From the NCBI RefSeq assembly GCF_051903065.1, contig NZ_CP178438.1: a DNA stretch of 64,000 nt. One strand, written 5' to 3'. How positions within the stretch are numbered: position 1 is the first letter of the stretch; each line of letters begins with the position of its first letter. Shown here in pieces: positions 2,511 to 24,045 of this stretch. The notes under the pieces were generated by a model, which did no database searches, was not told the DNA's origin, and was given only the letters and a program-made list of their open reading frames with translations. This DNA is from Escherichia coli (lineage in GTDB: Bacteria; Pseudomonadota; Gammaproteobacteria; Enterobacterales; Enterobacteriaceae). Made by a program: the position numbers and the translations under genes.

Positions 2511-4178
2511 ATGCTGAGAACTTTTACAGGACAAAATTATAAAGCATACGAAAGCTTTAAGTTAGATTTAAAGCCATTGACAATATTGTTAGGTGCAAAT
2601 AGTTGTGGAAAAAGTGCACTAATTAACTCTTTGTTGATGTTTTCTCAGACAGTTGATTCAATGTCATTGTCTGACTCTGCTCTACGGCTGAATGGACCTA
2701 AAGTGGGAATGGGGGAAGCATTAAATATTATAAAAAATAAAGATGACTCCAAAACACTTAACTTTAGCTTTGATTTTTCTGATAATAGCGTAGTTAAAAA
2801 TGGCATTGATACTCTGAGAAGAGAAACTTTAGAATCATTTGCTATGATTATGCGATTCACTATACAGACAGTAAAAAATAATGATGAGTTGGTCGCGAAG
2901 GCCAATAATTTGATAAATGAATCTTTGAATGCTATTGTTAATTTTGATGAGTTTGAGGAGGCTAAATTAAATATTATTGCTGATAAATTGTGCCAGTTGA
3001 TTATGCTTTTTAGAGATGCTGGCAATAATATTATGTTTAGCCGGGCTACCTCAGAAAACTTACGCAGATTTATATATGAATGCCCATTGAAGAGAATCAA
3101 AGATTGCCTAACTAAAGTTGTTTCTATTTCAGGAAATAAATTGTCTGCATCTAAAATAAGTTATGACTTCAGATATGATAAAAATAAAGGTGTGGTAAAG
3201 GTTTCGAGATTTGTTCTTCTAAATAAGAATGATGAAAGAATAGTTGAACTGTTACCCAAAAAGAATAATGTCGTTGTATTGTCGGATGTTATCCCTCAAG
3301 AAGTATTTAGAGGATGTAAGTCTGATATCTTAGAAATCATGAATCCTTATTCTTTGGGGCTATTCCCTGTCAATGAAGGACGTGGTTTTTATGTTTTTTT
3401 TGGAAATTCCTACAACCCTGTTGTTAACTTTTTGTCACATGTTGTTTCTCTGGGAGTATTAATGCTTTCAAAAATGTTTGATGGCGAAAATGTTAATCAT
3501 GTCAGCCCGTTGAGGGCATTTCCTCAGCGTTATTATTTATTAGATAAAACAGTCAATCATGCTCAGTTAAATTCTGCTGATGGCTCTGAGTTGGCGGAGA
3601 TTCTGAAGAAAAATACAAAAATAACAGAAAACATAAACCTTCTTCTCGCTGAATTTAACTTAGCGGTTGATATAGTTAGAGTTAATGACATAATTCATAA
3701 GATAGTTATAAACCAAGATGCTGTTAATTTAGAATTGACAGATGTAGGGTTTGGAATATCACAAGTGTTGCCTGTCTTGGTTCAAGCTTATTTGTCACCA
3801 AAGGGCTCGATTACAATAATAGAACAACCAGAAATACATTTGCATCCTAAAATGCAGGCATGGTTAACTGACGCATTAATTAAAATATCTATGCAAGAAA
3901 AGAAAATTTTTATTATTGAAACACATAGTGATGCATTAGTTAGACGGATTAGATTAAGAATTGTTGATGAATCAAGCGAACTTACTGAGGACCATGTGGC
4001 AATCTATCATCTTGAGCGAGATGAAGAGGGAACATCAACCTTACTAAATAGAGTGGCTGTGAATTCTGATGGAGATATCACATGGCCAAATGAGTTTATG
4101 GATGTTGAGATTCAGGATACAATTAGAATACAGGAATTAAAGATACAAAAAATAATGAACTCAAAGGGAGTTCATTGA
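2511..4178 (+). CDS. ABC/OLD-type (AAA_15/AAA_21-like) ATPase, cargo gene 1 of A-Q hotspot; candidate defence ATPase (AriA/AbiLi/PtuA-like)
   Basis: 555 aa; Walker A GANSCGKS near N-terminus; Walker B/D-loop-like IIEQPEIHLHP and H-loop-like ETHSD near C-terminus with ~400-aa insertion between; very AT-rich; strong RBS AGGAG upstream. Confidence 0.75.
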   Translation: MLRTFTGQNYKAYESFKLDLKPLTILLGANSCGKSALINSLLMFSQTVDSMSLSDSALRLNGPKVGMGEALNIIKNKDDSKTLNFSFDFSDNSVVKNGIDTLRRETLESFAMIMRFTIQTVKNNDELVAKANNLINESLNAIVNFDEFEEAKLNIIADKLCQLIMLFRDAGNNIMFSRATSENLRRFIYECPLKRIKDCLTKVVSISGNKLSASKISYDFRYDKNKGVVKVSRFVLLNKNDERIVELLPKKNNVVVLSDVIPQEVFRGCKSDILEIMNPYSLGLFPVNEGRGFYVFFGNSYNPVVNFLSHVVSLGVLMLSKMFDGENVNHVSPLRAFPQRYYLLDKTVNHAQLNSADGSELAEILKKNTKITENINLLLAEFNLAVDIVRVNDIIHKIVINQDAVNLELTDVGFGISQVLPVLVQAYLSPKGSITIIEQPEIHLHPKMQAWLTDALIKISMQEKKIFIIETHSDALVRRIRLRIVDESSELTEDHVAIYHLERDEEGTSTLLNRVAVNSDGDITWPNEFMDVEIQDTIRIQELKIQKIMNSKGVH

Positions 4179-4179
4179 T

Positions 4180-5181
4180 ATGCTTTGTGCTGTTTGTTTG
4201 TGTCCTGAATTTGTTGCTGCTAATATTTCTGATGTTAAAGTTTTTAGCGGTTTTTTTATTGAAACCATTGTTAATGGTGAAAATGAGTTGATTCTTGATG
4301 CTGATGGAAAAATTCGCTTAGGTTATTTAAAGTCTTGCGGAAACAACAAGGATTCTTTTTTGTTTTTTAAGAAGTGGGAGTCTGAGTTATCTAAAGCTCC
4401 TTCAGGCAAGATATTGCGTACACCAGTGCCGAATAGTTCTGAGGATATTAAGGATATAGTTGTTTGTGCAGTTGCTAATGCAGCCACTACTTTTGATAAG
4501 CATATCGTAGTGTTAGATAATAATAGTTACTCTGGATATATTGATGAATTAATCAGGCAAAGGATTAATTTGTTAAATCTTAATAGTATAAGCTTAATAT
4601 CAAAGGATGGTCGAGTGCAGCGTCCTTTGAATTTTATAAAGTTTGATAGTGATTTATCTTGGGTGCTTCAAAGATTGGGGCGTCGCTCTGCTAAAGGATA
4701 TGGTGAAGATGATTTTAATGATTTTATACGGGATATGTTATTAGCTAAGAATTATGAGGTAAAAGATCAAACTAGAGAGGGAGAGTCTCAATCTGGTAAA
4801 AGTGCGGGTGAATTAGATCTTGTTATTGAAGATAAAGGAAATCTATTTGCTATAATAGAAGCATTGATTTTAAAATCTCTAGATCAAGCTAACATATTAA
4901 AGCATTATTCAAAGCTAATTAGTAACTATAATCCTATTAATGTTAAACGCTTGTTTTTAATTGCTTATTATACTGGTGCAAAATTTGATGCTTGGTGTGA
5001 GAGATACATTGATTATCTAAAAGAGATTACTCCGGTAGATATTGGTGTAGAATCTCATGAGATAGTTGGGATTAAAGAAGTGGAGACTCCATATATAGGT
5101 TTGAGAAAAATTGAACATCATTTTAGATATGCGGGAGAACATTATTTTTGTGTTCATTATGCAGTCAAGATGGCTCGGTGA
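4180..5181 (+). CDS. Partner protein of hotspot ATPase, putative nuclease effector (PD-(D/E)xK-like or TOPRIM/DUF4435-like)
   Basis: 333 aa; ATG 1 nt after upstream TGA (translational coupling); motifs GELDLVIEDKG (D-x3-E-x-K) and IETIV..LDADG (E...DxD); AT-rich. Confidence 0.6.
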   Translation: MLCAVCLCPEFVAANISDVKVFSGFFIETIVNGENELILDADGKIRLGYLKSCGNNKDSFLFFKKWESELSKAPSGKILRTPVPNSSEDIKDIVVCAVANAATTFDKHIVVLDNNSYSGYIDELIRQRINLLNLNSISLISKDGRVQRPLNFIKFDSDLSWVLQRLGRRSAKGYGEDDFNDFIRDMLLAKNYEVKDQTREGESQSGKSAGELDLVIEDKGNLFAIIEALILKSLDQANILKHYSKLISNYNPINVKRLFLIAYYTGAKFDAWCERYIDYLKEITPVDIGVESHEIVGIKEVETPYIGLRKIEHHFRYAGEHYFCVHYAVKMAR

Positions 5182-5193
5182 TGTTTAATATGA

Positions 5194-5218
5194 ATGCACC
5201 TATAGGGTGCATCATTTT
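5194..5218 (+). terminator. Putative terminator of the hotspot operon
   Basis: Hairpin ATGCACC-TATA-GGGTGCAT followed by CATTTTG directly after the stop at 5181. Confidence 0.45.
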
Positions 5219-5318
5219 GCATGTTTAAATACGTTCTCTATGTATGTGCGCTAGGCTTGACTGGCGCGCTTGTACTATGTTTATGCAACTGCATTAAAAC
5301 CGACCCATGAAGCGGGCG

Positions 5319-5337
5319 GGCGAGGCGGGGAAAGCAC
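5319..5337. other. cos: P2-type cos site (19-nt cohesive end sequence)
   Basis: GGCGAGGCGGGGAAAGCAC matches the P2 cohesive-end sequence as I recall it; lies between the A-side cargo and portal gene Q, where P2 cos sits. Confidence 0.6.
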
Positions 5338-5478
5338 TGCGCGCTGGCGGTGGTGCTGATTTTATTTTTTCAGCGTCTGAGCGCGTCGTGATGGCGTTTA
5401 GTCGGCCTGCCGGGGCGTTGGTGTGTCTGCGGGGTGTTTTGTACAGTGGCGAACGTGTGAGGGCGTGATGACGGGGTG

Positions 5479-5501
5479 TAAAAAAGCCGCCCGCAGGCGG
5501 C
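5479..5501 (-). terminator. Rho-independent terminator downstream of Q (minus strand)
   Basis: Minus-strand hairpin GCCGCC-TGCG-GGCGGC followed by a T-run, immediately 3' of the Q stop. Confidence 0.5.
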
Positions 5502-5506
5502 GATGT

Positions 5507-6541
5507 TCAGCCGTTGTCAGTGTCCAGTGAGTAGTTTTTAAATCGGATGACCTCCTGACCGAGCCAGCCGTTTATCTCGCGGATCCTGTCCTGTAACGGG
5601 ATAAGCTCATTGCGGACAAAGACCTTTGCTACTTTCTCAATATCGCCCAGCGACCCGACGTTCTCCGGCTTGCCGCCCATCAACTGAAAGGGGATGCGGT
5701 GCGCGTCCAGCAGGTCTGCGGCACTGGCTTTTTTGATATTAAAAAAATCGTCCTTCGTCGCCACTTCACTGAGCGGGATAATTTTAATGCCGTCGGCTTT
5801 TCCCTGCGGGGCATAGAGAAACAGGTTTTTAAAGTTGTTGCGGCCTTTCGACTTCACCATGTTTTCGCGAAGCATTTCGATATCGTTGCGATCCTGCACG
5901 GCATCCGTGACGTACATGATGTATCCGGCATGTGCGCCGTTTTCGTAATACTTGCGGCGGAACAGAGTGGCCGACTCATTCAGCCAGGCAGAGTTAAGGG
6001 CGCTGAGATATTCCGGCAGGCCGTACAGCTCCTGATTAATATCCGGCTCCAGCAGGTGAAACACGGAGCCGGGCGCGAAAGGTGTCGGCTCGTTGAAGGA
6101 CGGCACCCACCAGTAAACATCCTCTTCCACGCCACGGCGGGTATATTTTGCCGGTGAGGTTTCCAGTCTGATGACCTTACCGGTGGTGCTGTAACGCTTT
6201 TCCAGAAACGCATTGCCGAACACCAGAAAATCCAGCACAAAGCGGCTGAAATCCTGCTGGGAAAGCCACGGGTGCGGAATAAACGTTGAAGCCAGAATAT
6301 TACGTTTGACGTAAATCGGTGAGCTGTGATGTACGGCAGCACGCAGGCTTTTTGCCAGACCGGTAAAGCTGACCGGTGGCTCATACCATCTGCCGTTACT
6401 GATGCACTCGACGTAATCCAGAATGTCACGGCGGTCGAGTACCGGCACCGGTTCACCAAAGGTGAATGCCTCCATTTTCGGGGCGCTGGCGGTCATTTTT
6501 TTTGCCGCTAGTCGCGGTGTTTTCCCTTTTTTCTTGCTCAT
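5507..6541 (-). CDS. Q: Portal protein gpQ
   Basis: 344 aa, size and sequence character of P2 Q; overlaps start of P; conserved position next to cos. Confidence 0.9.
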   Translation of the reverse strand: MSKKKGKTPRLAAKKMTASAPKMEAFTFGEPVPVLDRRDILDYVECISNGRWYEPPVSFTGLAKSLRAAVHHSSPIYVKRNILASTFIPHPWLSQQDFSRFVLDFLVFGNAFLEKRYSTTGKVIRLETSPAKYTRRGVEEDVYWWVPSFNEPTPFAPGSVFHLLEPDINQELYGLPEYLSALNSAWLNESATLFRRKYYENGAHAGYIMYVTDAVQDRNDIEMLRENMVKSKGRNNFKNLFLYAPQGKADGIKIIPLSEVATKDDFFNIKKASAADLLDAHRIPFQLMGGKPENVGSLGDIEKVAKVFVRNELIPLQDRIREINGWLGQEVIRFKNYSLDTDNG

Positions 6542-8313
6542 CAGTAAAACTCCAGAATGGTGGATGTCAGCGGAGTGCTGATACCCGCGGTGAGTGGCTC
6601 ATTTAACAGGGCGTGCATGGTCGCCCAGGCGAGGTCGGCGTGGCTGGCTTCCTCGCTGCGGCTGGCCTCATAGGTGGCACTGCGTCCGCTGCTGGTCATG
6701 GTCTTGCGGATAGCCATAAACGAGCTGGTGATGTCGGTGGCGCTGACGTCGTATTCCAGACAGCCACGGCGGATGACGTCTTTTGCCTTGAGCACCATTG
6801 CGGTTTTCATTTCCGGCGTGTAGCGGATGTCGCGCGCGGCGGGATAGAACGAGCGCACGAGCTGGAACACGCCGACACCGAGGCCGGTGGCATCAATACC
6901 GATGTATTCGACGTTGTATTTTTCGGTGAGTTTGCGGATGGATTCAGCCTGGGTGGCAAAGTCCATGCCTTTCCACTGGTGACGCTCAAGTATTCTGAAT
7001 TTGCCACCGGCCACCACCGGCGGTGCCAGCACCACGCATCCGGCACTGTCGCCACGGTGTGACGGGTCGTAACCAATCCAGACCGGGCGGGAGCCGAACG
7101 GATTCGCGGCAAACGGCGTATAGTCTTCCCATTCTTCCAGCGTGTCGACCATGCAGCGTTGCAGCTCCTCGAACGGGAATACCGACGCCTTGTCGTCAAC
7201 AAATTCACACATGAACAGGTTTTTAAAATCGTCGGCGCTGTTTTCGCGTTTAAGCTGCTCAATGTCGAACAGCGTGCAGCCACCTTTCAGGGCGTCCTCA
7301 ATGGTGACAATCTGCCGCCACTGGCCGTCCGCACAGAGAAGCCCACCGGCAAGGGCGTTATGACTGACGTCGATTTCCACGCGTTCGGCGGCGCTGGCGC
7401 GTCCCCGGTTGAACAGTTCACCCGACCAGAACGGATAGGCGTCGTGCGCCAGCGTGGACGGGGTGGAGAAATAGGTCGAGCGCAGGTGACTCTGTGAGGC
7501 CATACCTGATGCCACCTTACGCAGTACCTGAAAATTCGGGATCCAGAAAATCTCATCGACGTACAGGTCGCCGTTATGGCTCTGCGCGGTGTTGGAGTTG
7601 GTGCCGAGAAAAATCAGTTTTGCGCCGTTATTGCCCAGGACAATCGGGTCACCGGTCAGGTCAACGTCAACCAGCCGGGCAAAGGCGATGATGTATTCGC
7701 GGAACACATACGCCTGCGTTTTACTGGCCGACAGAAAAATCTGGTTATGACCGGTTTTCAGGGCGCGCAGCAGCGCCTCGCGGGAAAAATAAAACGTCGC
7801 GCCAATCTGGCGGGATTTCAGGATATCGCGGATGCGGTGCTCAAGCCCGGCGCGATACCAGTGCAACTGATAGTCGAAAGACTGCTCAAAGAAAATCTGC
7901 TCCAGCTTTTCGATGGCCTCGTCACTGAAAAAATTCTTTTTCGGTTTGCGACGCCCGCCTTTGTTGCGGTTAGCGACGTTCGGATTAAGGTCTGCCTCGT
8001 TGCCGGTCTGACTGTAGCGGTTGACCCGCGCCAGCCGTTCAATCTGGCGTCCCAGCAGGTCAATTTCCTTGAAGTCACCGCCGGTTTTCTGCGGTTTGAT
8101 GATGAGCTGGGTCAGCCGCGCTTCCAGACTCATTTCGACACGGCTGATGGGGGCAACGCTGTCCCAGCCGTCGCGCTGTTTCCAGCTCTGCACCGTCGGG
8201 CGTTTCATCTGCAACATGGCGGCAATCTGCGGCACGGAAAACCCCTGCCAGTACAGCAGCGCCGCCTGACGACGCGGGTCGTGTAAAAGAGTGGTGTCTG
8301 TGGTGATGGTCAT
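6541..8313 (-). CDS. P: Terminase large (ATPase) subunit gpP
   Basis: ORF 6541..8343; start taken at MTITTDTTLL (ATG at 8311-8313 on minus strand) as in P2 gpP; divergent from O. Confidence 0.88.
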   Translation of the reverse strand: MTITTDTTLLHDPRRQAALLYWQGFSVPQIAAMLQMKRPTVQSWKQRDGWDSVAPISRVEMSLEARLTQLIIKPQKTGGDFKEIDLLGRQIERLARVNRYSQTGNEADLNPNVANRNKGGRRKPKKNFFSDEAIEKLEQIFFEQSFDYQLHWYRAGLEHRIRDILKSRQIGATFYFSREALLRALKTGHNQIFLSASKTQAYVFREYIIAFARLVDVDLTGDPIVLGNNGAKLIFLGTNSNTAQSHNGDLYVDEIFWIPNFQVLRKVASGMASQSHLRSTYFSTPSTLAHDAYPFWSGELFNRGRASAAERVEIDVSHNALAGGLLCADGQWRQIVTIEDALKGGCTLFDIEQLKRENSADDFKNLFMCEFVDDKASVFPFEELQRCMVDTLEEWEDYTPFAANPFGSRPVWIGYDPSHRGDSAGCVVLAPPVVAGGKFRILERHQWKGMDFATQAESIRKLTEKYNVEYIGIDATGLGVGVFQLVRSFYPAARDIRYTPEMKTAMVLKAKDVIRRGCLEYDVSATDITSSFMAIRKTMTSSGRSATYEASRSEEASHADLAWATMHALLNEPLTAGISTPLTSTILEFY

Positions 8314-8379
8314 GAATACCTCGCCGTGATGAATACACGGCAAGGCTACTGAGTCGCGCCCTGCGATTCGCTAAGGTGC

Positions 8380-8389
8380 TGTTGTGTCA
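8380..8389 (+). promoter_or_regulatory. Late-promoter-associated motif TGTTGTGTCA upstream of O (P_O region; Ogr-dependent by analogy)
   Basis: Motif about 100 bp upstream of O start; same decamer family recurs upstream of V and FI. Confidence 0.45.
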
Positions 8390-8486
8390 GTGATAAGCCA
8401 TCCGGGACTGATGGCGGAGGATGCGCATCGTCGGGAAACTGATGCCGACATGTGACTCCTCTAATCACTATTCAGGACTCCTGACA

Positions 8487-9341
8487 ATGGCAAAAAAAGT
8501 CTCAAAATTCTTTCGTATCGGCGTTGAGGGTGACACCTGTGACGGGCGTGTCATCAGTGCGCAGGATATTCAGGAAATGGCCGAAACCTTTGACCCGCGT
8601 GTCTATGGTTGCCGCATTAACCTGGAACATCTGCGCGGCATCCTGCCTGACGGCATTTTTAAACGTTATGGCGATGTGGCCGAACTGAAGGCCGAAAAGA
8701 TTGATGACGATTCGGCGCTGAAAGGCAAATGGGCGCTGTTTGCGAAAATCACCCCGACCGATGACCTTATCGCGATGAACAAGGCCGCGCAGAAGGTCTA
8801 TACCTCAATGGAAATTCAGCCGAACTTTGCCAATACCGGCAAATGTTATCTGGTGGGGCTGGCCGTCACCGATGACCCGGCAAGCCTTGGCACGGAATAC
8901 CTGGAATTCTGCCGCACGGCAAAACACAATCCCCTGAACCGCTTCAAATTAAGCCCTGAAAATCTGATTTCAGTGGCAACGCCCGTTGAGCTGGAATTTG
9001 AAGACCTGCCTGAAACCGTGTTCACCGCCCTGACCGAAAAGGTGAAGTCCATTTTTGGCCGCAAACAGGCCAGCGATGATGCCCGTCTGAATGACGTGCA
9101 TGAAGCGGTGACCGCTGTTGCTGAACATGTGCAGGAAAAACTGAGCGCCACTGAGCAGCGCCTCGCTGAGATGGAAACCGCCTTTTCCGCACTTAAGCAG
9201 GAGGTGACTGACAGGGCGGATGAAACCAGCCAGGCATTCACCCGCCTGAAAAACAGCCTCGACCACACCGAAAGTCTGACCCAGCAGCGCCGCAGCAAGG
9301 CCACCGGCGGTGGCGGTGACGCCCTGATGACGAACTGCTGA
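8487..9341 (+). CDS. O: Capsid scaffolding protein gpO
   Basis: Start at MAKKVSKFFRIG (ATG 8487) inside ORF 8421..9341; 284 aa as P2 gpO. Confidence 0.88.
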   Translation: MAKKVSKFFRIGVEGDTCDGRVISAQDIQEMAETFDPRVYGCRINLEHLRGILPDGIFKRYGDVAELKAEKIDDDSALKGKWALFAKITPTDDLIAMNKAAQKVYTSMEIQPNFANTGKCYLVGLAVTDDPASLGTEYLEFCRTAKHNPLNRFKLSPENLISVATPVELEFEDLPETVFTALTEKVKSIFGRKQASDDARLNDVHEAVTAVAEHVQEKLSATEQRLAEMETAFSALKQEVTDRADETSQAFTRLKNSLDHTESLTQQRRSKATGGGGDALMTNC

Positions 9342-13813: not shown

Positions 13814-14243
13814 TGCCGTCACGGTGCTGAAAACCAGTCCAGAGATGCTGCGGATATTCGTGGATAACGGGAGTATTGCTTCCACACTGGCGACGTCGCT
13901 GTCATTCGAAAAGCGTTACACGCTCAATGTGATTGTGACCGACTTTACCGGTGATTTTGACCTGCTCATCGTGCCGGTGCTGGCGTGGCTGCGGGAAAAT
14001 CAGCCCGACATCATGACCACCGACGAAGGCCAGAAAAAGGGCTTCACGTTTTATGCAGACATCAACAATGACAGCAGCTTTGATATCAGTATCAGCCTGA
14101 TGCTGACCGAGCGCACGCTGGTCAGTGAGGTTGACGGTGCGCTGCATGTGAAGAATATCCCGGAACCTCCGCCGCCGGAGCCGGTCACCCGCCCGGTGGA
14201 GCTTTATATCAATGGCGAACTGGTGAGCAAGTGGGATGAATGA
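13776..14243 (+). CDS. R: Tail completion protein gpR
   Basis: 155 aa, P2 gpR size and position. Confidence 0.85.
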   Translation: MLKPDSLRRALTDAVTVLKTSPEMLRIFVDNGSIASTLATSLSFEKRYTLNVIVTDFTGDFDLLIVPVLAWLRENQPDIMTTDEGQKKGFTFYADINNDSSFDISISLMLTERTLVSEVDGALHVKNIPEPPPPEPVTRPVELYINGELVSKWDE

Positions 14244-14694
14244 GTTTAAGCGTTTTGAAGACCGGCTGACCGGACTGATTGAATCGCTGTCACCGTCAGG
14301 GCGTCGGCGACTGAGCGCCGAACTGGCGAAACGTCTGCGGCAGAGTCAGCAGCAGCGAATTAAATTACAAAAAGGCCCGGATGGTACGCCGTATGTACCG
14401 AGAAAAAACCAGCCAGTGCGAAATAAGAAAGGCCGGATAAAGCGGGAAATGTTTGTGAAATTACGCACTAACCGGTTTATGAAAGCAACAGGTAGCGAGA
14501 GTGCGGCGGTGGTGGAGTTTGCCAGCGGAGTGCAACGAATTGCGCGAGTACATCAATTAGGGCTTAAGGATAAGCCGGGGCGTAATAGTGCTGTGGTGGA
14601 ATATCCTGTTCGTGAGTTATTTGGTTTTGACAAGGAATCTATACAATTGATAGAAAGGGAGTTATTAGTGATTCTATCGAAAGATGTTATATGA
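14236..14694 (+). CDS. S: Tail completion protein gpS (3' end AT-rich, possibly chimeric)
   Basis: 152 aa; N-terminus MNEFKRFEDRLTGL P2 S-like; last ~35 codons are AT-rich and join the downstream cargo gene. Confidence 0.8.
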   Translation: MNEFKRFEDRLTGLIESLSPSGRRRLSAELAKRLRQSQQQRIKLQKGPDGTPYVPRKNQPVRNKKGRIKREMFVKLRTNRFMKATGSESAAVVEFASGVQRIARVHQLGLKDKPGRNSAVVEYPVRELFGFDKESIQLIERELLVILSKDVI

Positions 14695-15446
14695 GACGGG
14701 TGTTTATGGATGAAAAGTTTACTATTTTGAGAAAAAGAGTAAAGCACTCTCAAAAGAAAGTTATGGATTGTATTATTGCTGACCATAATGCTGATATATG
14801 TGTGTTATGCGGGAGTCCTGACGATATTACTCGTGAGCACATTATTCCTCAGTGGGCCTTTGAGTCAAATGCTGAAAAATCTTTAATTAATAAAAAGAAT
14901 AATCAGTCAACTCATTACATTAAAGCCACTGTACCAGCATGCAGAGTGTGCAATTCTGATTTGCTGGGAGTGTTTGAGTATAACCTGAAGAAATTTCTTA
15001 CGGAAAAGAGGGGAGAGGAGTTAACAGATTATGAGTATGATTGCATCATATGGTGGTTGCAATACATGGGTTTTAAGTTGCAATTAATGGATTTGCGGAA
15101 CCGCTTTCTCAGGTATAAAGGTGGTGATTATATCCCGTTCCTTGCAAACTTCCCGGTTGCAATGTTTTGGGGGAATGTCGATACGACGCCGGGGGATGTC
15201 TTCAGGATTATACGAAAATCGCGACGCAATCTGATGTCGAAATGGAAGGATAAAAAACATAATTCTTTGATGGTTTTTGAAACATCAAACAAGAGTTTTC
15301 ATTTCTTTCATAAGGTTGATGAATTTATTTTTATTGAAATGCCTCTGGTTAAGAAGGCGTTTTTCTTCTTTTTTAATAAAGAATTTGACAGCCATGATTT
15401 AGCTCATGAGGAGTGTATGAAGATTATAGAGAAGTGCTACAACTAA
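14691..15446 (+). CDS. HNH-motif nuclease-like cargo protein between S and V (P2 orf30 position); candidate defence or accessory gene
   Basis: 251 aa; CVLCGSPDDITREHIIPQW ... PACRVCNSD (CxxC...H...CxxCN His-Me finger pattern); strongly AT-rich; start may instead be ATG at 14706. Confidence 0.6.
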   Translation: MRRVFMDEKFTILRKRVKHSQKKVMDCIIADHNADICVLCGSPDDITREHIIPQWAFESNAEKSLINKKNNQSTHYIKATVPACRVCNSDLLGVFEYNLKKFLTEKRGEELTDYEYDCIIWWLQYMGFKLQLMDLRNRFLRYKGGDYIPFLANFPVAMFWGNVDTTPGDVFRIIRKSRRNLMSKWKDKKHNSLMVFETSNKSFHFFHKVDEFIFIEMPLVKKAFFFFFNKEFDSHDLAHEECMKIIEKCYN

Positions 15447-16507: not shown

Positions 16508-17416
16508 ATGCCGATTATCGACCTGAACCAGCTACCCGCACCGGATGTGGTTGAGGAGCTGGACTTTGAAACCATTCTTGCCGAACGCAAGGCGACACTG
16601 ATTTCCCTTTACCCGGAAGACCAGCAGGAGGCGGTCGCCCGTACCCTGACGCTGGAATCTGAGCCTCTCGTCAAACTGCTGGAGGAAAATGCTTATCGTG
16701 AGCTTATCTGGCGTCAGCGTGTGAATGAGGCCGCACGGGCGGTGATGCTGGCCTGTGCTGCCGGTAATGACCTTGATGTGATTGGTGCCAATTACAACAC
16801 CACGCGCCTGATTATCACCCTGGAAGATGATTCGACCATCCCGCCGACACCGGCAGTGATGGAATCTGACACGGATTATCGTCTGCGTATTCAGCAGGCG
16901 TTTGAAGGTTTAAGCGTCGCCGGGTCGGTGGGGGCCTATCAGTATCATGGTCGCAGTGCCGACGGGCGTGTCGCGGATATTTCTGTAACCAGTCCGTCTC
17001 CGGCCTGCGTCACCATCTCTGTGCTGTCACGTGAAAATAACGGCGTCGCATCCGAAGACCTGCTGGCCGTGGTGCGTAACGCCCTTAATGGTGAGGACGT
17101 CAGACCGGTGGCCGACCGCGTGACCGTGCAGTCTGCCGCCATCGTTGAATACCAGATAAACGCCACGCTTTACCTTTACCCTGGTCCCGAAAGCGAACCC
17201 ATACGCGCTGCTGCCGTGAAAAAACTGGAAGCGTACATCACGGCACAGCACCGGCTGGGGCGCGACATCCGTCTGTCTGCCATTTATGCCGCTTTGCATG
17301 TGGAAGGCGTGCAGCGTGTCGAACTGACTGCACCGCTGGCCGACATCGTGCTCAACAGTACGCAGGCGTCTTTCTGTACCGAATACCGCGTCGTGACCGG
17401 AGGCTCGGATGAGTGA
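16508..17416 (+). CDS. J: Baseplate protein gpJ
   Basis: 302 aa, position. Confidence 0.88.
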   Translation: MPIIDLNQLPAPDVVEELDFETILAERKATLISLYPEDQQEAVARTLTLESEPLVKLLEENAYRELIWRQRVNEAARAVMLACAAGNDLDVIGANYNTTRLIITLEDDSTIPPTPAVMESDTDYRLRIQQAFEGLSVAGSVGAYQYHGRSADGRVADISVTSPSPACVTISVLSRENNGVASEDLLAVVRNALNGEDVRPVADRVTVQSAAIVEYQINATLYLYPGPESEPIRAAAVKKLEAYITAQHRLGRDIRLSAIYAALHVEGVQRVELTAPLADIVLNSTQASFCTEYRVVTGGSDE

Positions 17417-17939
17417 TTCGCGACTGCTGCCGACCGGCTCATCACCGCTTGAAGTTGCCGCCGCAAAAGCCTGTGCGGAAATTGAAAAAACGCCGGTCAG
17501 GATTCGTGAACTGTGGAACCCGGATACCTGTCCGGCAAATCTGCTGCCGTGGCTGGCGTGGGCGTTTTCGGTCGACAGGTGGGATGAAAAGTGGCCGGAA
17601 GCGACAAAACGCGCCGTTATCCGCGATGCCTATTTCATCCACTGTCATAAGGGCACTATCGGTGCAATCCGGCGTGTGGTGGAGCCGCTCGGCTATCTCA
17701 TCAACGTGACGGAGTGGTGGGAAAACAGTGACCCGCCCGGCACCTTCCGGCTTGATATTGGTGTACTGGAAAGTGGCATCACAGAGGCAATGTATCAGGA
17801 AATGGAACGGCTGATTGCTGATGCCAAACCTGCAAGCCGTCATCTTATTGGCCTGAACATTACCCGGGACATTCCCGGCTACCTGTTCGCCGGTGGTGTG
17901 GCTTACGACGGCGATGTAATTACGGTTTACCCCGGATAA
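17409..17939 (+). CDS. I: Baseplate protein gpI
   Basis: 176 aa, position. Confidence 0.85.
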   Translation: MSDSRLLPTGSSPLEVAAAKACAEIEKTPVRIRELWNPDTCPANLLPWLAWAFSVDRWDEKWPEATKRAVIRDAYFIHCHKGTIGAIRRVVEPLGYLINVTEWWENSDPPGTFRLDIGVLESGITEAMYQEMERLIADAKPASRHLIGLNITRDIPGYLFAGGVAYDGDVITVYPG

Positions 17940-17949
17940 GTGAGGAATA

Positions 17950-19827
17950 ATGAGCACAAAATTCAAAACCGTTATCACCACTGCCGGTGCAGCAAAGCTG
18001 GCAGCGGCAACCGCACCGGGAGGGCGGAAGGTCAACATTACCACGATGGCCGTCGGGGATGGCGGTGGTAAATTGCCTGTCCCGGATGCCGGACAGACCG
18101 GGCTTATCCACGAAGTCTGGCGACATACGCTGAACAAAATCAGCCAGGACAAACGAAACAGTAATTATATTATCGCAGAGCTGGTTATTCCGCCGGAGGT
18201 GGGCGGTTTCTGGATGCGTGAGCTTGGCCTGTACGATGATGCGGGAACGTTAATTGCCGTGGCGAACATGGCCGAAAGTTATAAGCCTGCCCTTGCCGAA
18301 GGCTCAGGGCGTTCGCAGACCTGCCGCATGGTCATCATCGTCAGCAGTGTGGCCTCAGTGGCGCTGACCATTGACACCACAACGGTGATGGCAACGCAGG
18401 ATTACGTTGATGACAAAATTGCAGAACATGAACAGTCACGACGTCACCCTGACGCCTCGCTGACCGCAAAAGGTTTTACTCAGTTAAGCAGTGCGACCAA
18501 CAGCACGTCTGAAACGCTCGCCGCAACACCAAAAGCTGTTAAGACGGTAATGGATGAAGCGAACAAAAAAGCGCCATTAAACAGCCCTGCACTGACCGGA
18601 ACGCCAACGACGCCAACTGCGCGACAGGGAACGAATAATACTCAGATCGCAAACACGGCTTTCGTTATGGCCGCGATTGCCGCCCTTGTAGACTCGTCGC
18701 CTGACGCACTGAATACGCTGAACGAGCTGGCGGCGGCGCTGGGCAATGACCCGAATTTTGCTACCTCCATGACTAATGCGCTTGCGGGTAAGCAACCGAA
18801 AGATGCCACTCTGACGGCGCTGGCGGGGCTTGCTACTGCGGCAGACAGCTTTCCGTATTTTACGGGGAATGATGTTGCCAGTTTGGCAACCCTGACAAAA
18901 GTCGGGCGGGATATTCTGGCTAAAGCGACCATTGCTGCCGTTATCGAATACCTCGGTTTGCAGGAAACGGTAAACAGGGCCAGGAACGCGGTGCAAAAGA
19001 ATGGCGATACCTTGTCCGGCGGGATTACTTTTGAAAACGACTCAATCCTTGCCTGGATTCGAAATACTGACTGGGCGAAGATTGGATTTAAAAATGATGC
19101 CGATGGTGACGCTGATTCATACATGTGGTTTGAAACGGGGGATAACGGCAATGAATATTTCAAATGGAGAAGCCGCCAGAGTACCACAACAAAAGACCTG
19201 ATGACGCTGAAATGGGATGCACTAAATATTCTTGTTAATGCCGTCATTAATGGCTGTCTTGGAGTTGGTACGACGAATGCACTAGGTGGTAGCTCTATTG
19301 TCCTTGGTGATAATGATACCGGATTTAAACAGAATGGAGACGGTATTCTTGATGTTTATGCTAACAGTCAGCGTGTATTCCGTTTTCAGAATGGAGTGGC
19401 TATTGCTTTTAAAAATATTCAGGCAGGGGATAGTAAAAAGTTCTCGCTATCCAGCTCTAACACATCCACGAAGAATATTATCTTTAATTTATGGGGTGCT
19501 TCCAACCGTCCAGTGGTTGCAGAGTTAGGCGATGAGTCCGGATGGCATTTCTATAGCCAGCGAAATACAGATAACTCGGTAATATTTGCTGTTAACGGTC
19601 AGATGCAACCCAGCAACTGGGGGAATTTTGATTCCCGCTATGTGAAAGATGTTCGCCTGGGTACGCGAGTTGTTCAATTGATGGCGCGAGGTGGTCGTTA
19701 TGAAAAAGCCGGACACACGATTACCGGATTAAGAATCATTGGTGAAGTAGATGGCGATGATGAGGCCATCTTCAGGCCGATACAAAAATACATCAATGGC
19801 ACATGGTATAACGTTGCGCAGGTGTAA
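17950..19827 (+). CDS. H: Tail fibre protein gpH
   Basis: 625 aa; MSTKFKTVITTAGAAKLAAATAPG N-terminus as recalled for P2 H; C-terminal part AT-richer. Confidence 0.88.
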   Translation: MSTKFKTVITTAGAAKLAAATAPGGRKVNITTMAVGDGGGKLPVPDAGQTGLIHEVWRHTLNKISQDKRNSNYIIAELVIPPEVGGFWMRELGLYDDAGTLIAVANMAESYKPALAEGSGRSQTCRMVIIVSSVASVALTIDTTTVMATQDYVDDKIAEHEQSRRHPDASLTAKGFTQLSSATNSTSETLAATPKAVKTVMDEANKKAPLNSPALTGTPTTPTARQGTNNTQIANTAFVMAAIAALVDSSPDALNTLNELAAALGNDPNFATSMTNALAGKQPKDATLTALAGLATAADSFPYFTGNDVASLATLTKVGRDILAKATIAAVIEYLGLQETVNRARNAVQKNGDTLSGGITFENDSILAWIRNTDWAKIGFKNDADGDADSYMWFETGDNGNEYFKWRSRQSTTTKDLMTLKWDALNILVNAVINGCLGVGTTNALGGSSIVLGDNDTGFKQNGDGILDVYANSQRVFRFQNGVAIAFKNIQAGDSKKFSLSSSNTSTKNIIFNLWGASNRPVVAELGDESGWHFYSQRNTDNSVIFAVNGQMQPSNWGNFDSRYVKDVRLGTRVVQLMARGGRYEKAGHTITGLRIIGEVDGDDEAIFRPIQKYINGTWYNVAQV

Positions 19828-19830
19828 GTA

Positions 19831-20358
19831 ATGCAGCATTTAAAGAACATTAAGTCAGGTAATCCAAAAACAAAAGAGCAATATCAGCTAACAAAGAATT
19901 TTGATGTTATCTGGTTATGGTCCGAAGACGGAAAAAACTGGTATGAGGAAGTAAGTAATTTTCAGCCAGACACAATAAAGATTGTTTACGATGAAAATAA
20001 TATTATTGTCGCCATCACCAGAGATGCTTCAACGCTTAATCCTGAAGGTTTTAGCGTCGTTGAGGTTCCTGATATTACTGCCAACCGGCGTGCTGATGAC
20101 TCAGGTAAATGGATGTTTAAGGATGGTGCCGTGATTAAGCGGATTTATACGGCAGACGAACAGCAGAAACTGGCGGAATTACATAAGGCAGCTTTGCTTT
20201 CCGAAGCTGAATCCGTGATTTTGCCGCTGGAGCGCGCGGTCAGGCTGAATATGGCAACAGATGAGGAGCGTAGTCGACTGGAGGCATGGGAACGCTATAG
20301 TGTTCTGGTCAGTCGTGTGGATCCTGCAAATCCTGAATGGCCGGAAATGCCGCAATAA
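19831..20358 (+). CDS. G: Tail fibre assembly chaperone gpG
   Basis: 175 aa [21 protein letters not shown]2 G-like. Confidence 0.88.
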
Positions 20359-20457
20359 GTTGTATGAGCTCTGGTGTGAGCTTACATATCTATGGCACAG
20401 AGTAAAGCCTAATCTGACAGTCCGTTCTGTGCCAGTAGCGGACGTTTGAATAAATTA

Positions 20458-20486
20458 TTGACTAACTAAAGTTTTTGGCATTAAAT
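20458..20486 (+). promoter_or_regulatory. Putative sigma70 promoter for the HEPN-motif cargo gene
   Basis: TTGACT, 17-bp spacer, TTAAAT; ~35 bp upstream of GGAG RBS and ATG 20527. Confidence 0.35.
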
Positions 20487-20526
20487 TTTCAATTAAAATG
20501 TTCGCATTGATTTATTGGAGTAAATA

Positions 20527-21480
20527 ATGGATATACATGCAAAAAGAGTTGGCAGTCCACTTTATAAAATTATTATGTACTTAAATAAGTATGAAGAAGA
20601 TACACTGGAAGACATAAAACTTCAGTTTCTTTTAAAAAATTTAAAAACTCATTTCAAGAAACTGTTTTATATGATTACTTACATTAATAAAATTCAAAAA
20701 GATGCTGAGTTCATCAGAAAACATGATGCAACATCAATTGTCAGCATTAGTGCTATTGAGTATTGCTATTATAAAATCAGCACGATATGGGATATTGCAT
20801 ATCAGATAGCTGATAAATTAATTTTCCCAACTAAAAAAAATGGCAATAAATATGATTACCTTGAAAATCATTTCCAGCAATATGCACAGGAATTTCCAGA
20901 TTTGAATTTAAAATGGTATAAGGACTTTAATAAAATAAGAAATAAGATAGTTCATGGAGGGATAACAGTAAATCCTTATTATGTCAACGATGATAATATT
21001 AAAACAAAGATTTGTTTCCAAGCATATGACTCTGATCTAAACGATCTGATTCAACCTCATATGATGTATTCAAATAGATTCAATAACAATATTAATTTTG
21101 CTGATTACTATTTTACCTTTTATACTCATCTTCTCTATTCATATCTTTTTGATTTTTTTGATTTTGTACTTCTTGAGCTAAACAAAGATAAATCACATGA
21201 TTTAGACAATCTTATTCTTGATGATATACCGCACAAATTGTTTGGTGCTCATCATGAAACATGGTTGTTATCTGATGTTGATCAATTTATGAAAATTACA
21301 AGAGAAATGATTTCCCTACAAATAGCTGATGGTTGTTTAAATAAAATTGAGAAAATACCCTCAAGTGATATTGAACATTTTTTTAACAACTTTCCATTTT
21401 GTCTTATGACAAAGGTTAGCTCCGGAGATTGGGTATTGGTTGAGGATAAAGCGGCTGAAACAAAGTCATCGGACACTTAA
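20527..21480 (+). CDS. HEPN-motif (Rx4H) protein, Abi-like candidate, cargo in the G-FI (Z/fun) hotspot
   Basis: 317 aa; very AT-rich, Lys/Asn/Tyr/Phe-rich; motif RNKIVHGG (R-x4-H); own promoter-like elements. Confidence 0.55.
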   Translation: MDIHAKRVGSPLYKIIMYLNKYEEDTLEDIKLQFLLKNLKTHFKKLFYMITYINKIQKDAEFIRKHDATSIVSISAIEYCYYKISTIWDIAYQIADKLIFPTKKNGNKYDYLENHFQQYAQEFPDLNLKWYKDFNKIRNKIVHGGITVNPYYVNDDNIKTKICFQAYDSDLNDLIQPHMMYSNRFNNNINFADYYFTFYTHLLYSYLFDFFDFVLLELNKDKSHDLDNLILDDIPHKLFGAHHETWLLSDVDQFMKITREMISLQIADGCLNKIEKIPSSDIEHFFNNFPFCLMTKVSSGDWVLVEDKAAETKSSDT

Positions 21481-21774
21481 ATTTTTTTTGTGCCAAAGTC
21501 TACTCCTCGCTCGTCACAGGCTTTGGCATTCGTTTCAACAACCAAGTGATAGCATATATTGTGACCTGCACCCCGTTGATTCATACATCCTCGATGTAAG
21601 CAATCCCTTGAGAACGTCCACTCCTCGCTCTTAGCAGATCACACGGTTCTTCAAACGATCCGCTTCGTACCAGAAACGAACTTTTATCTCAAATTTGAAC
21701 CTTTTAGTGGATGACGACGTTTGTGTCTTCAAGTAGTCTTAAAAGCATGCGGATAGTGCATAGGAAAAGCAGAA

Positions 21775-22611
21775 GTGATCGATGACCCACTACCAGAAAA
21801 CTGGCAAGACCTCCAGACAGGGGTCCAACGTATATTCCGTAATGTTGGCTTGTTTGCAGAAGTCGAGGTCGATTTAGAAACCCCGCGTGGCTCGGTGAAT
21901 GTGGATGTTCTTGCTACAGATGTTAGGAGCGTGGACAAAATCAGATACATTGTGGAATGCAAAAACTGGGGTAGTTCTATACCACAGACGGTGGTCCATT
22001 CGTTCACCACGGTAATGCATGAAACCGGGGCTAATATTGGATTTATTATTTCAAAGCACGGGCTTCAGCAGGGTGCTAAACAGTACACTCAAAACACCAA
22101 TATTATTGGGATGACATACCTTGAGTTCCAAAAAAGGTATTTTGAGGCTTGGTGGAATAGATACTTTTGTCCACGTATCGGTGATGCTGCAGACGAACCG
22201 CTTCAGTACGTCGAACCAATCAACTCTAAACGAGATCGCGAATACGCCAAGCTAAGCCTTCAAGCACAAGAGAAGTTCGATCAGTTAAGGCAAGAGAAAG
22301 GTGTATCAGTAGTGGTTCTCTCTATGCTCAATTACAAGTTTATGTCGAAAGCATTAAACACTGGTAACTTGCTGGAAGTCCCAAATAATCTGGATGATTT
22401 TAAGAACAGAGTTCTCTCCCGAATATGTCCTCACATTGAATGGCATTGTGATACGTACAGAGAGCTGCTAGAGCTCATCTTGCAATACTTATCAGTCACA
22501 AAAGCAGAGTTTGATGCAATATTTGGTCGGGCCATCTTTGAACCGCCAAGTAGTATCACGGGGGTTACGGCTGAAGGTCCCCCTTTAGACGATGGTATTT
22601 ATCATCATTAG
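21775..22611 (+). CDS. PD-(D/E)xK restriction-endonuclease-like (Mrr_cat-like) protein, cargo in the G-FI hotspot
   Basis: 278 aa, GTG start; N-terminal VNVDVLATD ... YIVECKNW (D ... E-x-K nuclease signature). Confidence 0.55.
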   Translation: MIDDPLPENWQDLQTGVQRIFRNVGLFAEVEVDLETPRGSVNVDVLATDVRSVDKIRYIVECKNWGSSIPQTVVHSFTTVMHETGANIGFIISKHGLQQGAKQYTQNTNIIGMTYLEFQKRYFEAWWNRYFCPRIGDAADEPLQYVEPINSKRDREYAKLSLQAQEKFDQLRQEKGVSVVVLSMLNYKFMSKALNTGNLLEVPNNLDDFKNRVLSRICPHIEWHCDTYRELLELILQYLSVTKAEFDAIFGRAIFEPPSSITGVTAEGPPLDDGIYHH

Positions 22612-22732
22612 TTTCATACATAAACCATGCTCCCGCATGTCCGCATTTCGCTCAAAGCAGACTGTCAGATTTGATAGCGTTTGGGCTATGTAAACTGTCA
22701 GTCGGAAAATGAGTGTGTGCAAATCAGGACAG

Positions 22733-22760
22733 GCGGGCGAATTGCCCGCATTTTCTTTAT
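22733..22760 (+). terminator. Rho-independent terminator after the G-FI cargo genes
   Basis: GCGGGC-GAATT-GCCCGC followed by TTTTCTTTAT. Confidence 0.6.
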
Positions 22761-22854: not shown

Positions 22855-24045
22855 ATGAGCGACTATCATCATGGCGTGCAGGTGCTGGAGATTAACGACG
22901 GCACCCGCGTCATTTCCACCGTATCCACTGCCATTGTCGGCATGGTCTGCACGGCCAGCGATGCGGATGCGGAAATCTTCCCCCTCAATAAACCGGTGCT
23001 GATTACCAATGTGCAGAGCGCAATTGCAAAGGCCGGTAAAAAAGGCACGCTGGCGGCATCGTTGCAGGCCATCGCCGACCAGTCAAAACCGGTCACAGTT
23101 GTCGTGCGCGTGGAAGACGGCACCGGCGATGACGAAGAAACGAAACTCGCGCAGACCGTTTCCAATATCATCGGCACCACCGACGAAAACGGTCAGTACA
23201 CCGGACTGAAAGCCCTGCTGGCGGCGGAGTCGGTAACCGGTGTTAAACCGCGTATTCTCGGCGTGCCGGGACTGGACACCAAAGAGGTGGCTGTTGCACT
23301 GGCATCAGTCTGTCAGAAGCTGCGCGCTTTCGGGTATATCAGCGCATGGGGCTGTAAAACCATTTCCGAGGTGAAAGCCTACCGTCAGAATTTCAGCCAG
23401 CGTGAGCTGATGGTCATCTGGCCGGATTTCCTCGCATGGGATACGGTCAGCAGCACCACCGCCACCGCGTATGCCACCGCCCGTGCGCTGGGTCTGCGCG
23501 CTAAAATCGACCAGGAGCAGGGCTGGCATAAAACGCTGTCCAATGTCGGGGTAAACGGTGTTACCGGCATCAGTGCTTCTGTATTCTGGGATTTGCAGGA
23601 GTCCGGCACCGATGCTGACCTGCTTAACGAGTCAGGCGTCACTACGCTGATTCGTCGCGACGGTTTCCGATTCTGGGGTAACCGTACCTGCTCTGATGAC
23701 CCGCTGTTCCTCTTTGAAAACTACACCCGCACCGCGCAGGTGCTGGCCGACACGATGGCTGAGGCGCACATGTGGGCGGTGGACAAGCCCATCACCGCAA
23801 CGCTGATTCGCGACATCGTTGACGGCATCAATGCCAAATTCCGTGAGCTGAAAACAAACGGCTATATCGTGGATGCGACCTGCTGGTTCAGCGAAGAATC
23901 CAACGATGCGGAAACCCTCAAGGCCGGAAAACTGTATATCGACTACGACTATACACCGGTGCCTCCTCTCGAAAACCTGACCCTGCGCCAGCGTATTACC
24001 GATAAATACCTGGCAAATCTGGTCACCTCGGTTAACAGCAATTAA
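22855..24045 (+). CDS. FI: Tail sheath protein FI
   Basis: 396 aa, P2 FI-like. Confidence 0.9.
   Translation: MSDYHHGVQVLEINDGTRVISTVSTAIVGMVCTASDADAEIFPLNKPVLITNVQSAIAKAGKKGTLAASLQAIADQSKPVTVVVRVEDGTGDDEETKLAQTVSNIIGTTDENGQYTGLKALLAAESVTGVKPRILGVPGLDTKEVAVALASVCQKLRAFGYISAWGCKTISEVKAYRQNFSQRELMVIWPDFLAWDTVSSTTATAYATARALGLRAKIDQEQGWHKTLSNVGVNGVTGISASVFWDLQESGTDADLLNESGVTTLIRRDGFRFWGNRTCSDDPLFLFENYTRTAQVLADTMAEAHMWAVDKPITATLIRDIVDGINAKFRELKTNGYIVDATCWFSEESNDAETLKAGKLYIDYDYTPVPPLENLTLRQRITDKYLANLVTSVNSN

Follow-up and report, generated by a model that had tools for sequence, protein, structure and literature searches.

A P2-like prophage in a 64,000-nucleotide (nt) stretch of Escherichia coli contig NZ_CP178438.1 (assembly GCF_051903065.1), here called the window, carries between its tail genes G and FI a gene for a 317-amino-acid (aa) protein that is very probably a catalytic HEPN protein, judging from residue conservation and a structure model. 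On balance, we favor the reading that this protein is a stand-alone HEPN-fold ribonuclease (RNase), horizontally acquired as a single-gene cassette at the G-FI (Z/fun) site and acting as a self-inhibited abortive-infection effector; this wider proposal draws on sequence, modeling and analogy with studied systems. The predicted structure is a HEPN-type helical bundle, an Arg-His dyad is conserved across the family, the gene is autonomous, and it is found in a defense-associated and mobile context.

Fold and catalytic motif

20527..21480 (+), stand-alone HEPN-fold protein gene, ATG start, stop codon included; 317 aa, 28.5% G+C content (GC)
20614..21180 (+), HEPN core, residues ~30-218, from the AlphaFold2 model
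20938..20961 (+), codons for R138-N-K-I-V-H143-G-G (residues 138-145), the predicted catalytic Rx4H motif
21172..21438 (+), C-terminal small helical domain, residues ~216-304, in the close subfamily only

An initial annotation of this DNA had reported an AT-rich open reading frame (ORF) of 317 aa containing the sequence RNKIVHGG, and both were recovered, the ORF at 20527..21480 on the + strand and the motif at residues 138-145. The ORF is a real gene under purifying selection: the ratio of nonsynonymous to synonymous substitution (dN/dS) is 0.27 against a copy of 92% DNA identity, and against the remaining homologs synonymous sites are saturated while protein identity is still 45-69%.

The AlphaFold2 model (predicted local distance difference test score 87.6, predicted template modeling score 0.88) contains the up-and-down four-helix bundle characteristic of the HEPN superfamily. 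The core helices span residues 30-57, 71-98, 129-142, which carries the Arg and His, and 192-218; a beta-hairpin insertion (147-167) with its loop separates the motif helix from the last one of the core. The predicted fold is closest to HEPN toxins, with HepT (5YEP) as the best structural match and nearest solved fold, and Csm6-type HEPN domains are also among the structural neighbors. Thus, where the initial annotation had allowed for structure prediction yielding no HEPN fold, a HEPN-type bundle is predicted. The C-terminal domain of ~90 aa matched no known fold, a Foldseek search of AFDB50 returned only the protein's own family, and sequence-profile searches of the PDB with both of the alignments described below gave only spurious matches, to endolysin and interferon.

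The motif alone is within chance, as Rx4-6H occurs in 44% of shuffles of the 317-aa protein and R-polar-x3-H in 9%; its significance comes from conservation across homologs. R138 and H143 are the only Arg and His that never vary, both in a close alignment of 37 sequences (A1) and in a wide alignment of 31 distant sequences down to 14% identity (A3); the other four Arg and eleven His are at most 76% conserved in A1 and at most 13% in A3. In the close alignment R138, H143, G144, G145, E78 and W130 are invariant and N139 nearly so (at least 90%). In the wide alignment only R138, H143 and F164 never vary, G145 is nearly invariant, and the consensus again reads RN at 138-139, with a polar residue right after the Arg; position 78, read by eye, usually has E and in some distant members D. 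The alignments single out the Arg-x4-His pair with its Gly-Gly as the sole strictly conserved polar feature. Catalytic HEPN domains are characterized by Rx4-6H, a polar residue after the Arg and an upstream acidic residue (Anantharaman et al. 2013, PMC3710099), and the 317-aa protein has all three, the last two being N139 and E78. The HEPN assignment made initially is therefore upheld by a predicted fold nearest to HEPN toxins, by the invariance of R138 and H143, and by weak Pfam HEPN matches that are stronger in distant relatives.

A rare family carried as a single-gene module

A search of 5.8 billion proteins returned 70 homologs at 37-99% identity, in hosts including Vibrio, Aeromonas, Klebsiella, Pantoea, Dickeya, Pseudomonas, Aliarcobacter, Salmonella and Pasteurella. 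Among 1.84 billion representative proteins, an exhaustive profile search detected 54 clusters only. All homologs have a GC of 27-36%, whatever the host. None of the 70 contains a Pfam domain. Three homologs bear the automatic UniProt name 'Apea-like HEPN domain-containing protein'; PADLOC gave no match on ten distant relatives, and literature searches with the protein accessions found no papers. As judged by these searches, the family is real but rare and uncharacterized. In one distant member (P0096, 507 aa) the HEPN region is fused to an extra ~240 aa on its N-terminal side, possibly a sensor domain, which could offer a clue to the regulation of the shorter proteins.

20431..21512 (+), HEPN module as found elsewhere: the gene with 96 nt upstream and 32 nt downstream

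The claim that the gene acts singly had been made at the outset, and the genomic contexts bear it out. Because the neighbors of homologs differ between genomes, across nine contexts and in every genus examined, we regard the gene as a single-gene module. Homologs lie beside a type I-F CRISPR-Cas system and a helicase-PLD protein, SIR2 and DUF87, Fic genes and an integrase, SIR2 and a YobI ATPase, a ter operon with a PRTase-CE/OLD-TOPRIM gene, a relaxase, an IS110 element next to mutS, and, in a conjugative element, TraC and a RelA/SpoT protein. The ter-operon copies (L013/L014) share 92% nt identity with the window over exactly 20431-21512, which leaves no room for a partner gene. Genes downstream of homologs in Vibrio (239 aa) and Pseudomonas (301 aa) are unrelated to the nuclease gene that follows in the window and to each other, and neither a tandem repeat RNA array nor an Rfam family was found at the HEPN module. 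In Vibrio anguillarum (L003-L006) the homolog is always flanked by the same 690-aa (3774-5846) and 239-aa (7061-7780) proteins, which contain no Pfam domain and do not recur in other genera; in one strain an insertion sequence splits the 690-aa gene.

19831..20358 (upstream flank), gene G, tail fiber assembly protein; phrog_136, 3.6e-80
22855..24045 (downstream flank), tail sheath gene FI; phrog_23, 6e-159
22733..22759 (+), intrinsic terminator (GCGGGCGAATTGCCCGC then a T-run), ahead of the FI promoter; terminator scan

In the window the module occupies part of 2.5 kb of lower-GC DNA between the G stop (20358) and the FI start (22855), with tail genes J, I, H and G at 16508-20358 and FI, FII and E onward from 22855. 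GC across the HEPN gene is 26-29%, versus 55-60% in the flanking tail genes, and gene order is identical in the RefSeq annotation of near-identical prophages. The gene had been placed directly after G; it does lie 3' of G, but a 168-nt spacer intervenes. The only terminator-like site on the + strand of the G-FI interval is that at 22733-22759, and the scan of this strand found none between G and the HEPN gene or between the HEPN gene and the nuclease gene.

The G-FI interval is a cargo and defense hotspot, as the initial annotation had stated. Elsewhere among E. coli P2-like prophages this site is filled by FRG, SIR2, Shedu or HNH genes, P2 itself has fun(Z) between G and FI, and the interval is the second P2 defense locus described by Vassallo et al. 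(2022, PMC9519451).

Expression and the frameshift allele

20458..20486 (+), promoter-like TTGACT (20458-20463), 17-nt spacer and TTAAAT (20481-20486), from sequence reading
20517..20520 (+), GGAG ribosome-binding site, 6 nt before the ATG
20833..20840 (+), A8 homopolymer, codons 103-105

The promoter-like hexamers and ribosome-binding site initially proposed are all present at the spacing given, and the 96 nt upstream travel with the HEPN gene. A promoter scan scored 9 of 12 matches; the region contains 13 promoter-like sites against 7.8 ± 2.8 expected from shuffles, so that such sites are only marginally commoner than in shuffled DNA and not significant alone. Both hexamers differ in the 92%-identical copy (TTAACT and TGAAAT), and for this reason we consider a promoter belonging to the HEPN gene plausible and no more.

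The A8 tract is intact in the window and in two other loci (L019, L021); two loci have A7 (L001, L022), and the same split annotation occurs in H3-H7. With A7 the reading frame is lost and the protein ends near residue 125, short of the catalytic motif. This allele occurs in isolates from human, cattle, chicken and yak, and a strain with the same prophage lineage has A8. Real slippage and a fitness cost could account for it, with counter-selection or assembly error as further candidate causes; five independent assemblies share the allele, which makes a homopolymer sequencing error less likely.

Proposed mode of action

We propose a mechanism from work on the HEPN superfamily (PMC3710099) and from preprints on two HEPN defense systems, ApeA (10.64898/2026.01.26.701840) and DARNA (10.64898/2026.02.22.705581). 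Dimerization through the HEPN core would create a composite RNase site that works without metal. The enzyme would be kept off in the lysogen and, because the HEPN gene has no antitoxin gene or RNA with it, its own N- and C-terminal extensions are the probable inhibitors. Infection by another phage would switch the RNase on to cut host RNA, with tRNA anticodon loops the likeliest target on the model of ApeA and DARNA, such that translation would stop and the infection abort.

Several points weigh against this reading. The RNase activity, toxicity and phage resistance of the 317-aa protein are predictions only. The 'constitutive' expression proposed initially was an inference, and any expression in the lysogen is putative; DNA of 28% GC is typically silenced by H-NS in E. 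coli. Five of the seven copies in complete E. coli genomes carry the A7 frameshift ahead of the motif, which suggests that cells can often do without the gene or that it burdens them. With the window protein, every curated hidden Markov model (HMM) stayed below its threshold (best Pfam 0.18), searches of PADLOC, NCBIfam and PHROGs with it gave nothing or noise only, and tblastn found the gene in none of 50,697 deposited phage genomes and 72,556 plasmids. Finally, profile comparison (hhalign) of the close alignment with the HEPN domain of ApeA spans 27 columns only (E 0.006, probability 6%).

Boundary repeats and movement of the cassette

20411..20443 (no strand assigned), left arm of the inverted repeat, from a repeat search; backbone homology ends at 20445-20466
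22639..22671 (no strand assigned), right arm of the inverted repeat; backbone homology resumes at 22636-22640
21498..21519 (+), internal arm-like copy directly after the HEPN gene, a direct repeat; the same copy follows the gene in L013
21616..21637 (+), second internal arm-like copy, at the start of the nuclease module; exact consensus match, 0 expected by chance

A 33-nt inverted repeat encloses the variable cassette (about 20447-22638), and copies accompany each module into other backbones. The copies, 83 in the loci examined, have the common form GTCCGC-N12-GCRGAC (~24 nt), often followed by TGTCAGATT. These arms are also found on either side of FRG, SIR2, Shedu and HNH cassettes; in P2, fun(Z) has a match to the right arm on one side and, read by eye, a left-arm copy lacking 1 nt on the other. 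A scan for the exact pattern gave 29 viral contigs, P2-like in about half of the cases and of other phage types in the rest, several with 2-4 copies. A stable DNA hairpin formed by single copies found no support, with z-scores of +0.95 to -2.7, most no better than shuffles. A literature search for the repeat sequence found no paper.

Two observations bear on the role of the arms. In Yersinia phage P37 (L020 600-745) the G-FI site is empty, at 133 nt; only the terminator and FI promoter region remain, and both arms and their adjoining ~50-90 nt are missing. Because the arms are absent from this empty site, they are part of the insertion scaffold and not of the ancestral backbone. In addition, the viral contig IMGVR_UViG_2778260994_000003 (L030) contains the complete HEPN and nuclease cassette at 6274-8517, matching window 22663-20420 with 99.7% identity, in an unrelated viral backbone (phrog_27913, phrog_19848 and an HNH endonuclease). 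Since homology ends inside both repeat arms, the cassette appears to have been transferred recently into this backbone as a unit. Judged from such comparisons, the repeat marks recombination breakpoints in several prophage types.

These results allow a more ambitious reading, which we advance tentatively and regard as doubtful: that the HEPN gene founds a new single-protein defense family with a structurally novel sensor domain, in an integron-like arrangement whose repeat is a recombination site shuffling single defense genes between phage hotspots. It takes its basis from the arrangement of the cargo genes, each followed by a ~24-nt dyad repeat copy with inverted copies bracketing the site, and from transfers between P2-like, lambdoid and other prophage backbones that break in repeat copies. 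A 2026 survey of P2 and P4 elements noted that the process of defense-gene shuffling 'still needs to be elucidated'. The repeat may matter more than the HEPN gene, as a testable sequence basis for rapid defense-gene swapping among temperate phages.

The Mrr-like neighbor

21775..22611 (+), Mrr_cat (PD-(D/E)xK) restriction-endonuclease-like protein, 278 aa; PF04471 7.4e-11, PADLOC PDC-S02 3e-5 (weak)

A second cargo gene at the G-FI site, overlooked initially, encodes a 278-aa Mrr_cat protein. The two genes could form one defense system, as sensor and effector or as RNase and DNase. Each of the 7 E. coli genomes with the HEPN gene also has the nuclease gene (7 of 5,426 complete genomes have the cassette), the pair moved together into the unrelated backbone of L030, and co-transcription is possible because no terminator-like site lies between them. 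However, the HEPN module stands alone in L013/L014 and in every other genus, and the nuclease gene stands without it in lambdoid prophages (L002/L033) that share window 21562-22662, including the repeat copy at 21616-21637. The genes also differ in GC (28.5% versus ~44%), they are separated by a 294-nt gap containing two cassette-boundary repeat copies, and the downstream neighbors of HEPN homologs are unrelated to the nuclease. We therefore consider a two-gene system unlikely, and on comparison of these loci the Mrr_cat gene is a separate, independent module. In L002 (6214-7050) the nuclease gene has replication genes on one side and further cargo on the other, namely genes for a 'HEPN domain-containing protein' and for a SEC-C protein, each adjoining a boundary-repeat copy.

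Unlikely alternatives: toxin, remnant or phage function

Less likely again is that the gene is a selfish toxin or addiction module which stabilizes the cassette or the prophage, is held in check by an unrecognized cis-encoded antitoxin or autoregulation, and has no anti-phage role. Toxins of the HEPN type are frequent in toxin-antitoxin systems, and no structure resembles the model better than HepT; the recurrent frameshift alleles point to a cost in fitness; and the gene is on mobile cassettes. By contrast, no MNT or other conserved small gene is adjacent, there is neither a repeat RNA nor an Rfam match, the module contains too little flanking DNA for an antitoxin, and the sites it occupies are enriched for proven defense genes.

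We find it improbable that the gene is a decaying, non-functional remnant, or that it encodes a helical protein with a coincidental Rx4H and HEPN-like bundle. The motif is expected in 44% of shuffles, most genomic copies (5/7) are frameshifted and no HMM match exceeds threshold, but the window copy is intact with a dN/dS of 0.27, R138 and H143 are invariant in a family diverging to 14% identity, and the structural neighbors are specifically HEPN proteins.

Least probable of all is that the HEPN domain serves the phage, by degrading cyclic-oligonucleotide immune signals or processing RNA in lytic growth: some HEPN enzymes do deplete cyclic oligoadenylate signals (10.64898/2026.02.22.705581) and, without a terminator after G, late-operon read-through could express the gene in lytic growth, but homologs are mostly in chromosomal islands and conjugative elements, none is in deposited phage genomes, and the G-FI site is non-essential, variable and can be empty.

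Other cargo of the prophage

Two further AT-rich insertions were noted in the window. That at 2511-5181 (33-38% GC), presumably at the other P2 hotspot in the interval between the replication gene and portal, holds two genes: one for a 555-aa ABC-type ATPase that matches the PADLOC models NsnB, HEC-03B, PDC-M55A and AriA, and one for a 333-aa partner with no match; together they are probably a PARIS/OLD-like ATPase system. The third AT-rich cargo ORF, at 14691-15443, encodes 251 aa (phrog_10503, function unknown) and overlaps the end of a tail-completion-like gene (14236-14694) by 4 nt. Its interval appears equivalent to the S-like/V interval of another E. coli P2-like prophage, in which the ApeA protein Ec2ApeA is encoded (L023 2501-4252).

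Comparison with known HEPN systems

The initial annotation had suggested a relationship to Abi_2/AbiD proteins, and this was not supported: PF07751 (Abi_2) gave no match even at E ≤ 10, nor did it appear in the per-member tables for the 37 close or 31 distant members. The nearest families are instead Apea-like and Cthe_2314-like HEPN proteins. HEPN_Cthe2314 (PF18730) is the only Pfam family with significant matches from wider family members, two of the 31 distant members reaching 1e-3 or better (best 1e-5); neither the window protein nor its close subfamily is matched by the model. Cthe_2314-like proteins are bacterial HEPN proteins with a conserved Rx4-6H and no detected associations (PMC3710099). 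Membership of an AbiF/type III-like pairing of toxin and RNA antitoxin was rejected, as there are no tandem repeat arrays and no Rfam match at E ≤ 1; on the same searches a riboswitch gained no support either.

The 317-aa protein differs from HepT (PDB 5YEP, 7AE2, 8XDJ) in being 2.4 times longer, with extra N- and C-terminal parts, at an identity of 9-10%. Membership of the HepT-MNT systems was rejected, no MNT antitoxin gene being present in the window or in nine homolog contexts. With Fun(Z) of P2, a lysogenic-conversion gene that blocks T5, the HEPN gene has in common the G-FI site and the same bracketing repeat arms, but Fun(Z) is an unrelated protein of 528 aa encoded on the opposite strand.

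DARNA, or PD-T7-3 (10.64898/2026.02.22.705581), is itself a single-gene abortive-infection system and resembles the 317-aa protein in outline, with an N-terminal Rx4H HEPN RNase followed by a C-terminal non-catalytic domain; Csm6-type HEPN domains are among the structural neighbors of both. However, no sequence relationship was detected (no PADLOC match), and DARNA, at 456 aa, has at its C terminus a Pds5-like domain binding single-stranded DNA, where our protein has ~90 aa without a fold match.

The closest comparison is with ApeA. Reportedly, ApeA was described as a single-gene defense by Gao and colleagues in 2020. Like the HEPN gene of the window, it is a single-gene HEPN system in a cargo site of P2-like prophages, Ec2ApeA lying between S-like and V genes. 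The ApeA model PF18739 (HEPN_Apea) gives an i-Evalue of 0.18 with the window protein and 0.004-0.01 with the best member (none at or below 0.001); sub-threshold matches occur in 8 close and 5 distant members. The supplement of the ApeA preprint (10.64898/2026.01.26.701840) prints DNA that led us to Ec2ApeA in an E. coli genome, and for this protein we built a HEPN-domain alignment. In hhalign the close alignment matched the ApeA alignment locally (LNLKWY-KDFNKIRNKIVHGG versus RVEWQIRRIYRTRNLIVHTG), placing R138 and H143 on R502 and H507 of Ec2ApeA; R502A abolishes ApeA defense (same preprint). The wide alignment gave a spurious N-terminal match, and the catalytic helix was found with the close alignment only. 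The two proteins share the catalytic-helix pattern W-x6/7-R-N-x-I-V-H-x-G, an insertion between the third and fourth helices (H3-H4) of a split HEPN domain, described for ApeA in that preprint and present in our model, and HepT (5YEP) as the nearest solved fold.

They differ in size, 317 aa versus ~580, and in architecture: the N-terminal and Mid domains of ApeA (~330 aa, with a dinucleotide-binding pocket and ring assembly) are absent from the 317-aa protein, which has a C-terminal domain of its own. ApeA membership was rejected on the sub-threshold model match, the absence of a PADLOC match at E ≤ 1 in a library that we assume includes the ApeA model, and the missing domains. Because the match is local (27 columns) and these domains are lacking, the catalytic helix looks ApeA-like, yet the protein is not an ApeA.

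A protein of this type is not surprising in kind, as HEPN effectors are common in prophage hotspots and G-FI is a known defense locus. It is a good candidate for testing because its family is uncharacterized and invisible to databases and its architecture is compact. If its phenotype were confirmed, it would represent a compact (317-aa) single-gene HEPN defense family unrecognized by PADLOC 2.0, Pfam, NCBIfam and PHROGs. ApeA solves the problem of silence and sensing with a large ligand-binding scaffold that is absent here; the 317-aa protein, small and without partners, would then be a tractable model for how a lone HEPN RNase stays silent and then senses infection.

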